Origin: Octopus vulgaris
Lineage: Eukaryota
Direction: 5' to 3'
Assembly: GCA_951406725.2 (NCBI GenBank)
Contig: OX597818.1
Location: 116,870,001 to 116,934,000, forward strand
DNA: 64,000 nt
The notes under the pieces are model-generated. The model saw only the letters and a list, made by a program, of their open reading frames with translations, did no database searches and was not told the DNA's origin. Positions within the stretch are counted from its first letter, which is position 1, and the number at the start of each line of letters is the position of its first letter. Below are positions 53,163 through 54,793 of this stretch, piece after piece. The position numbers and the translations under genes were made by a program.

Positions 53163-53993
53163 TATTTTCATAACAGTCGTTATTTTTGTGGTTCAAAAAT
53201 TACGGTCTATGACTTCAACCAGTGTTCAGCTGGTACTTAATTTATCGACGAACTATATACCTGTCTGGCTGTTGAACTGTCTGTACCTATCTATTTACCT
53301 GTGTCTATGTTAATGGGTCCACCTACTTATTTATAAGAATGCCTGTCGAATGCTATAATTCTTTCTGTCCATGTTTTATATCTATCGACTTATCTAACCA
53401 TAATCTTGTATTCTTTTACTTGTTACAATCATTTGTAAGCCTCGTACTTATTTTATCGGTCTCTTTCGCCGACCATGCTAGCTTACAGGAACAAACACAC
53501 TAGCATCGGTTGTCAAACGATAGCGTCGGAGATAAACACGCACAAACACATACATACAACAAACTCAAGAAATATAAGAGAAAAACATAACATTACAAGC
53601 TCGATAGCGAACCGTAGAATTCGTCGTAGCATGTACGAATGTTTATCTTTACATATCTATGAAAATGGCGAGCTTATTCGCAATACATTTCGGTAACAAA
53701 TTGTCTAGTCGGAATAAAAATTCAGTATTGAACTATTCCGGTGAAAAATATAAATTAACAATTGAGGATAAAATCTTTAAAAGAAATTATCAGTAGTCAG
53801 CGTGAAAAACCTCGTAAGAGAAAAATCCGTAAATTCTTCCTCTTTGAAAATATTCATTTATATTATATTGAGGGTACTACTATTCGTAGATACCAACACG
53901 CTAAGAGGGACCAATGCGGTCAAAACTACTAAAAATAAACAAAATTTTACCGAATGCAAAACTTCAAAACACATCATTTTAAAAAAGAATTCA

Positions 53994-54057
53994 GTTACAT
54001 ATCACATGTGATTTCGCATTTAATGCAGAATATGCATTTCATGTTCATCAGTGCAAC
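53994..54057 (-). ncRNA. Type I hammerhead ribozyme
   Basis: Minus strand: GTTGCA-CTGATGA-aCAT-ga-AATGCA-tattc-TGCATT-aa-ATGc-GAAA-TCACATGTGA-TA-TGTAAC. Confidence 0.82.
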
Positions 54058-54437
54058 AAACTCAAGAAATATAAGAGAAAAACATAACATTACAAGCTCG
54101 ATAGCCAACCGTAGAATTCGTCGTAGCATGTACGAATGTTTATCTTTACATATCTATGAAAATGGCGGGCTTATTCGCAATGCATTTCGGTAACAAATTG
54201 TCTAGTCGGAATAAAAATTCAGTATTGAACTATTCCGGTGAAAAATATATATTAACAATTGAGGATAAAATCTTTAAAAGAAATTATCAGTAGTCAATTT
54301 GTTACCGAAATGCATTGCAAATAAGCCCGCCATTTTCATAGATATGTAAAGATAAACATTCGTACATGCTACGACGAATTCTACGGTTGGCTATCGAGCT
54401 TGTAATGTTATGTTTTTCTCTTATATTTCTTGAGTTT

Positions 54438-54501
54438 GTTGTACTGATGAACATGAAATGCATATTCTGCATTAAATGCGAAATCACATGTGATATGTAA
54501 C
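54438..54501 (+). ncRNA. Type I hammerhead ribozyme in the inverted copy
   Basis: GTTGTA-CTGATGA (54444-54450)-stem II-GAAA (54480-54483)-TCACATGTGA-TA-TGTAAC. Confidence 0.8.
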
Positions 54502-54737
54502 TGAATTCTTTTTTAAAATGATGTGTTTTGAAGTTTTGCATTCGGTAAAATTTTGTTTATTTTTCGTAGTTTTGACCGCATTGGTCCCTCTTAGCGTGTT
54601 GGTATCTACGAATAGTAGTACCCTCAATATAATATAAATGAATATTTTCAAAGAGGAAGAAGTTACGGATTTTTTCTCTTACGAGGTTTTTCACGCTGAC
54701 TACTGATAATTTCTTTTAAAGATTTTATCCTTAATTG

Positions 54738-54793
<56 letters not shown>

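Follow-up and report, generated by a model that had tools for sequence, protein, structure and literature searches.

What kind of element leaves a short insert with a complete hammerhead (HHR) on each of its strands, and how does such an insert come to lie in an octopus SINE? We considered these questions for a locus of Octopus vulgaris in a 64,000-nucleotide window, the whole stretch of DNA analysed here, which holds direct and inverted copies of a 497-bp unit. The window is AT-rich, microsatellite-rich animal DNA that contains SINEs, a LINE and a Pif1 fragment. The LINE (25046-27418, minus strand) carries AP-endonuclease and RT domains over two frames (Pfam Exo_endo_phos_2 and RVT_1), the Pif1 2B helicase fragment at 3848-4153 (minus strand; Pfam) is Helitron-like, and a further Pfam match, to DUF6451, lies at 17914-18561 on the plus strand.

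The insert divides a host SINE

Three features flank the insert:

53429-53554, minus strand: 3' half of the host SINE, 76% identical to 52938-53067; it carries on the TGTATG/GT tract after (TA)n
54745-54789: (TA)n target tract, an internal microsatellite of the host SINE
54790-54955, minus strand: 5' half of the host SINE, a tRNA-like head with A and B boxes, 81-83% identical to 51405-51628 and 52741-52932

Read along the minus strand, the order is SINE head, (TA)n, insert and TGTATG tract; in intact copies, this last tract comes after (TA)n. One older SINE supplies both flanks, head and tail, in correct order and orientation. Because they are two halves of a single SINE, the insertion must have gone into its internal TA tract, where any TSD is unreadable. 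SINEs of this kind, with a tRNA head and internal (TA)n/(TG)n, are present in many copies, including 51405-51786, 52741-53160, 56468-56622 and 58031-58207, and we take them to be the type known from octopus genomes. A second SINE-like family consists of 184-bp tandem repeats at 55937-56488 and 16758-17128, with an inverted relative at 59130-59434.

Direct and inverted copies of a 497-bp unit

The insert itself is composed of two arms that meet at a short microhomology:

53555-54296, minus strand (HHR sense, 3' end leftward): left arm, in which 1.49 units of the 497-bp element are arranged head to tail
53557-53799, minus strand: 243-bp direct overlap, copy 1
54054-54296, minus strand: 243-bp direct overlap, copy 2
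54291-54296: inversion junction, where unit positions 53794-53799 and 54199-54204 share a microhomology of 5/6 nt (2 nt exact)
54297-54745, plus strand (HHR sense): right arm, an inverted, 5'-truncated copy running from unit position 54198 to about 53752

Repeat comparison and alignment confirmed the outline given in an earlier note on this DNA, namely a 497-bp unit repeated directly about 1.5 times and followed by an inverted arm of about 450 bp that ends in (TA)n. The period of 497 is seen in the overlap copies, 53557-53799 and 54054-54296, which are 98% identical over 243 nt; four substitutions fall within the overlap and another lies at 53556/54053. On the inverted side, 53821-54204 is mirrored at 54291-54674 (384 nt, 99%), and in the full alignment 54297-54745 corresponds to 53752-54198 read as its reverse complement, with five substitutions and one inserted base, the final T ahead of the TA run being assignable to either side of the right-arm boundary. 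The flip had been placed at a 2-nt CA microhomology; 2 nt do match exactly, but they belong to a wider match of 5/6 nt at 54291-54296. Similarly, the left end, said to start exactly at the 5' strand of stem I, does fall on that strand, but within its last 4 nt, 52-55 nt upstream of the predicted cleavage site, and its position is blurred by 2-4 nt that are common to the unit and the SINE's TGTATG tract. In the HHR sense, the insert has a 3' end on either side; these two ends lie about 300 nt apart within the unit, and the cleavage site is at neither.

Two complete hammerheads with a palindromic stem III

Each arm contributes a complete motif:

53994-54057, minus strand: complete type I HHR, with C3 at 54051, A10.1 at 54044, C11.1 at 54016 and the predicted cut between 54000 and 53999
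54001-54012: perfect 12-nt palindrome that constitutes stem III, with no stable hairpin and -15.8 kcal/mol as an intermolecular duplex
54438-54501, plus strand: second complete type I HHR, with A10.1 at 54451, C11.1 at 54479 and the predicted cut after 54495

A descriptor search and folding bore out the type I HHR that had been reported here. Both copies have the full core (C3-A9 at 54051-54045 on the minus strand and at 54444-54450 on the plus strand), GAAA, the perfect 12-nt palindrome, an AUA triplet, a 6-bp stem I and A10.1 opposite C11.1; G12-A14, A15.1-U16.1, a cleavable H17 and three stems are all in place. The type I descriptor found five sites in the 64-kb window, two of them in this family and three in a 485-bp family described below, compared with a mean of 0.03 and a maximum of 1 in 60 block-shuffled windows, which puts the HHRs far above chance. 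Rfam returned no hammerhead family at E up to 1 for the window or up to 10 for 701 nt, and its miRNA matches, which fell only on the inverted repeat and on microsatellites, were rejected. When we scanned for the core together with the palindrome, viral contigs gave 0 matches and metagenome contigs gave one (L001), which we took as a chance match: it has G at 17, its stem II is not clean and its surroundings are GC-rich.

The folding predictions point to a ribozyme that acts in pairs. By itself the palindrome is predicted to form a hairpin of 0.0 kcal/mol, with a pair probability of 0.03-0.07 within one strand, and in the predicted MFE structure of the monomer the core pairs with the palindrome, an inactive fold. 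Two copies, in contrast, are predicted to cofold as a strand-swapped double hammerhead at -35.8 kcal/mol versus -12.4 kcal/mol per monomer (binding -10.8), with the core of one strand facing the triplet of the other. An allele with G at 10.1, considered below, is also predicted to form the double hammerhead, at -43.2 kcal/mol. Dimeric cleavage is known for HHRs with a palindromic stem III, and these models support the proposal that the HHR is of the dimer type. They predict that the 12-nt palindrome would work only as a double hammerhead, the monomer HHR being inactive, and that tandem transcripts would be cut to unit length.

Each strand of this locus carries a single complete HHR, and nowhere do two complete ones follow each other on the same strand. 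The locus therefore cannot release a unit-length circle, and the insert is a spent copy. A read-through RNA is predicted to form a duplex of about 450 bp, with an MFE of -797 kcal/mol, in which the HHR is buried. The earlier suggestion that a read-through transcript would yield about 450 bp of dsRNA thus agrees with the predicted fold; transcription of the locus found no support. Pol III read-through from the host SINE is an unlikely source of such dsRNA, with T4 runs at 54867, 54550 and 54518 preceding the second arm.

A second hammerhead family in the window

The 485-bp HHR family lies at 37830-39390, where 3.2 units hold three complete type I HHRs, consecutive and on the minus strand. It has A10.1-U11.1, a 68-nt stem II region and a 12-nt near-palindrome, its 3' end adjoins (TA)n, and its units differ at 4-9 of 487 columns. 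The two families share a type I HHR, A10.1, a 12-nt self-complementary stem III, A17, a 3' (TA)n and units that are 1-2% apart. They differ in that A10.1 pairs with U in the 485-bp family, where stem II spans 68 nt and the HHRs are consecutive. The best local alignment between them scores 44, against 33.1 +/- 4.9 (maximum 50) for shuffles. This is no significant similarity, and it supports the claim that the 497-bp element represents a second retrozyme lineage. Nor are the palindromes predicted to cross-pair (-2.8 kcal/mol, versus -15.8 and -17.5 kcal/mol). We rejected a 3'-end motif common to both families, as 35% of random 40-nt window pairs score equally.

By eye, a solo PLE-type minimal hammerhead can also be seen at 63619-63665 (plus strand), downstream of an (AAT)n/(ATG)n run. 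It has an extra A after A9, G10.1-C11.1, a short palindromic stem III and a 5-bp stem I; the type I descriptor missed it, and its predicted MFE structure is not the active fold.

The 497-bp family is abundant and closes on itself

Public sequencing runs place this copy within a larger family. Among 24 runs listed, 20 contain part of the stretch (12 studies, 7 organism labels); X21-X24 contain next to nothing of it and speak neither for nor against the family. The contigs of four runs, X1, X3, X6 and X20, were aligned to one unit (53700-54204) at 85% likeness. X1 and X3 are of DNA type, X20 is on record as RNA (oligo-dT), and X6 is RNA by guess only. The unit is matched by 729 contigs in X1 and 1152 in X3, with depth in 30 of 30 bins, although depth is not copy number. 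There are 38 such contigs in X6, the run guessed to be RNA, and a single one in X20, a 250-nt contig at depth 2.2 that crosses the predicted cut site uncut and has A at 10.1. The 497-bp family is plainly abundant.

The same contigs show how the unit is arranged. A joint that goes back by 497 nt was found at a depth of 6027 in X1, 150 in X3 and 30 in X6, contigs of X3, X6 and X20 bridge the predicted cut site, and the share of contigs that continue into unlike sequence is 0 in X1 and in X3. Taken together, these observations show that the unit closes on itself. Junction reads of a 497-nt circle had been put forward as a test for circular RNA; they cannot prove circularity, because the go-back joint occurs in DNA runs too.

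The runs also reveal where copies of the family end. Among the loose ends listed, those of 12 contigs of X1 and 2 of X6 are rich in (TA)n and lie before 53748, a point some 250 nt downstream of the predicted cut, and the 3' end of the right arm coincides with this preferred end. Several different flanks meet the unit at 53748, as in a multi-copy, dispersed family. Also among the loose ends listed, (TA)n ends occur at 53856 and 53859, in one contig each, and at 53828-53834 some contigs pass from the unit to other sequence. These contigs possibly reflect a related family that shares the 3' segment, together with a second start site.

We rejected a coding role for the unit, whose longest stop-free sense frame is 52 aa, and Pfam gave no match for the four frames that overlap the insert. 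It is a small, non-coding, head-to-tail unit with one HHR, a GC content of 31% and a predicted circular fold at z = -3.7 against 40 shuffles. No terminal repeats were found beyond the unit and no tRNA gene in the window; PBS and PPT were judged by eye only. Neither a PLE ORF (RT plus GIY-YIG) nor a host gene was found among the 56 of the window's 268 frames that were scanned.

Two subfamilies differ at position 10.1

One position of the HHR distinguishes two forms of the family:

54044, minus strand: position 10.1, A in the window; the G allele accounts for 13% (X1), 51% (X3) and 48% (X6) of summed contig depth

The A-C mismatch that the earlier note had pointed out at 10.1-11.1 is present in both HHR copies of the window, so that this pair is not formed here; the sister subfamily, found in three of the four runs, has G-C. 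As for the question of whether the family consensus has G at 10.1, the answer is not simply G. Both bases occur at high depth, with G10.1 making up 7258 of a summed depth of 53982 in X1, 9007 of 17700 in X3, 43 of 89.7 in X6 and 0 of 2.2 in X20. Two subfamilies exist, of which A10.1-C11.1 is a common one, and we rejected private decay of 10.1 on the ground that A and the canonical G are both common.

Other variation around the motif is limited. No variant of at least 5% is listed in the HHR core, stem I or stem III in the four runs. One contig has eight differences over 53993-54067, with no more than three of them listed, and near contig ends stem I may therefore be variable. An X6 contig of 213 nt is identical to the window, A10.1 included. 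The segment 53700-54204 (505 bp) has no private change relative to the runs, where no variant comes near 100%; the insert outside this segment has about nine substitutions, and these are small numbers.

The G10.1-C11.1 pair is highly conserved (PMC4209133), and an axolotl HHR with a U-U mismatch at the 10.1-11.1 position still cleaves weakly (PMC7229834). Our literature searches found no cleavage measurement for A10.1-C11.1. Since A and G are each common alleles, a subfamily that may be crippled has multiplied. This widespread mismatch next to the catalytic core is the one oddity of the family.

Might the mismatch instead be a switch, in which ADAR edits A10.1 to inosine, an I-C pair is restored and the ribozyme is turned on? 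ADAR favours A-C mismatches, and RNA editing is heavy in coleoid cephalopods. G at 10.1 was moreover read in X6, which is guessed to be RNA. The G allele is equally present in the DNA runs, however, and is linked to a second change at 54040, the two co-occurring in X6 at a depth of 43 each (2 contigs). The sole contig from the run recorded as RNA has A, and 10.1 lies at the end of a short, interrupted helix. We consider an editing switch highly improbable. Its occurrence in DNA runs and the co-travelling change at 54040 mark G10.1 as a genomic subfamily, and we rejected editing as its source.

Origin of the insert

The reading that we favor, and hold to be likely, is that an abundant 497-bp HHR family without coding capacity has left a young copy here, and that this family is most probably a non-LTR retrozyme, copied and pasted by the RT-endonuclease of an autonomous PLE. 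On AT-rich DNA, a purified PLE protein cuts both strands and extends each of them; it initiates within its RNA, and HHR cleavage is dispensable (Frangieh et al. 2024, PMC11167929). A PLE copy is typically a partial tandem whose 5' end carries an inverted, 5'-truncated copy, and PLEs favor (TA)n targets, with no discernible TSD (Craig et al. 2021, PMC8557442). The insert bears these marks, a partial tandem with an adjacent inverted 5'-truncated copy, a (TA)n target and a fixed internal 3' end. The statement that partial-tandem or inverted ends typify PLE insertions was thus borne out, and the direct-plus-inverted layout is ordinary for PLE-made insertions and already described. Against our reading count the A10.1-C11.1 mismatch in an otherwise highly conserved pair, the missing Rfam match, the spacing of about 300 nt between the two 3' ends, the single contig from the run recorded as RNA, and the absence of a PLE ORF among the 56 of 268 frames scanned.

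On this reading, the PLE enzyme would have cut both strands in the TA tract of the SINE. One end would have primed reverse transcription at the preferred internal start, 53748-53752, to give the 450-bp right arm. Priming at the other end would have used the 2-4-nt microhomology immediately ahead of the HHR core and given a left-arm cDNA of 742 nt that would cross the unit junction of a multimeric or circular RNA, and the two cDNAs would have been joined head to head at the 5/6-nt microhomology. The differences between the arms, which are few and fit later mutation, do not separate a circular from a multimeric template.

The main rival to two-ended priming is the snap-back of one cDNA at the 5/6-nt microhomology; the inverted arm could otherwise stem from later rearrangement, or the palindrome could be an assembly error, and in each case the family is unchanged. 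A snap-back would suit a right arm that is a near-perfect mirror of the left, with a loop of 86-98 nt. The earlier note had looked to independent reads for confirmation of the inversion; the four contig runs gave none, a strand-switch joint being absent among the joints listed (2), so the inversion rests on the assembly. The left end of the insert is likewise absent among the loose ends listed (126 further ones stand beside these) in the four runs. Contigs drop rare variants, and the runs possibly come from other individuals. The right arm, moreover, ends at the family's preferred start, which a snap-back would have no reason to choose except AT microhomology, and the arms differ at six places, one being an insertion at 53820 for which the family is polymorphic. 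An assembly chimera is further opposed by flanks that rebuild one SINE. We judge these explanations of the inverted arm unlikely.

A different objection concerns the identity of the unit, which could be the pseudo-LTR (pLTR) of an autonomous PLE, the locus then being a heavily 5'-truncated partial tandem of that PLE. Such pLTRs carry type I HHRs and give a similar tandem and inverted layout, and retrozymes and pLTRs are related (10.64898/2026.07.22.740005); the few contigs that exit the unit at 53828-53834, among the loose ends listed, would also fit. Yet contigs close the 497-bp circle at every point, with an unlike share of 0 for X1 and X3, the HHR is followed by no ORF, and it is without the extra base between 9 and 10.1 that is typical of PLE minimal HHRs. 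We find this identity quite unlikely, and prefer a retrozyme mobilized by a PLE.

Relation to known retrozymes and PLEs

The 497-bp family has most of the testable features of the metazoan non-LTR retrozymes described by Cervera and de la Pena 2020 (PMC7229834), including a small, non-coding, GC-poor tandem unit, one type I HHR and a well-paired predicted circle. Like the HHRs of mussel retrozymes, its HHR is without the usual loop 1-loop 2 bases, and it resembles axolotl HHR_Amex2, whose helix II has a U-U mismatch at its base and which shows better cleavage in dimeric form (PMC7229834). Those retrozymes measure 150-450 nt, in contrast to 497 nt here, and the locus also departs from them in the A-C at 10.1-11.1 and the inverted arm; for the present family, circle and cleavage are only predictions. 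Whereas the usual stem III has 1-2 bp and a 2-4-nt loop (PMC4209133), the 497-bp family has the longer 12-nt palindrome.

Retrozymes have been presented as non-autonomous PLE derivatives linked to pLTRs (Li, Clavereau and Pollet 2026, 10.64898/2026.07.22.740005). The families of that study, of 51-972 bp and ranging from monomers to multimers, resemble ours, as does the pLTR link. Its 35 species include no mollusc class among those named, and its available text contains no analysis of insertion ends. The 497-bp locus falls outside its rule for 'active' copies, which calls for two consecutive complete HHRs. Eight of the nine retrozyme dimers tested there showed no cleavage, so inactive-looking families are common.

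The EN+ PLEs (Neptune, Naiad, Poseidon) resemble the insert in their partial tandem with an adjacent inverted 5'-truncated copy and in (TA)n targets without a discernible TSD (PMC8557442), as well as in an internal RT start downstream of the HHR cut and in the cutting and extension of both strands (PMC11167929). Unlike them, the insert is without an RT or GIY-YIG ORF, and its ends lie about 300 nt apart, against the 30-40-nt tail of PLEs; Naiads, for their part, are described as without HHRs (PMC8557442). Tandem plus inverted copies, (TA)n targeting and dimeric HHRs have all been published for PLEs or non-LTR retrozymes, so the type is a known one, and the 497-bp family is likely a new family of this PLE-parasite type.

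Our searches for literature on octopus and hammerheads returned only PMC8557442, whose octopus passage concerns Naiads; a cephalopod case may be contained in the supplement of PMC7229834 or in Lunse et al. 2017. Ribozymes are unmentioned in the available text of a 2026 octopus repeat annotation (PMC13282606). The 497-bp element adds a retrozyme family from an animal group for which these searches found none described. It also displays PLE insertion marks, a fixed internal 3' end, a TA target and an inverted copy, on a retrozyme, and the model in which PLEs are the partners of retrozymes is thereby backed by end structure and not by co-occurrence alone.

The two subfamilies bear on what the hammerhead is for. 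Tentatively, and with more doubt than confidence, we suggest that the A10.1 subfamily may have spread no less successfully than its intact sister. Either PLE copying would proceed without cleavage, or G10.1 copies would cut A10.1 in trans, the palindrome serving as a family-specific address. Trans cutting is conceivable because each core would cut the other strand in the predicted double hammerhead. If this suggestion is true, the A10.1 subfamily would cheat a parasite that itself exploits a parasite, and the family would amount to a natural experiment on the purpose of PLE and retrozyme hammerheads. The G10.1 and A10.1 sisters are a ready pair for the question, raised in PMC8557442 and PMC11167929, of whether hammerhead cleavage is needed for spread.
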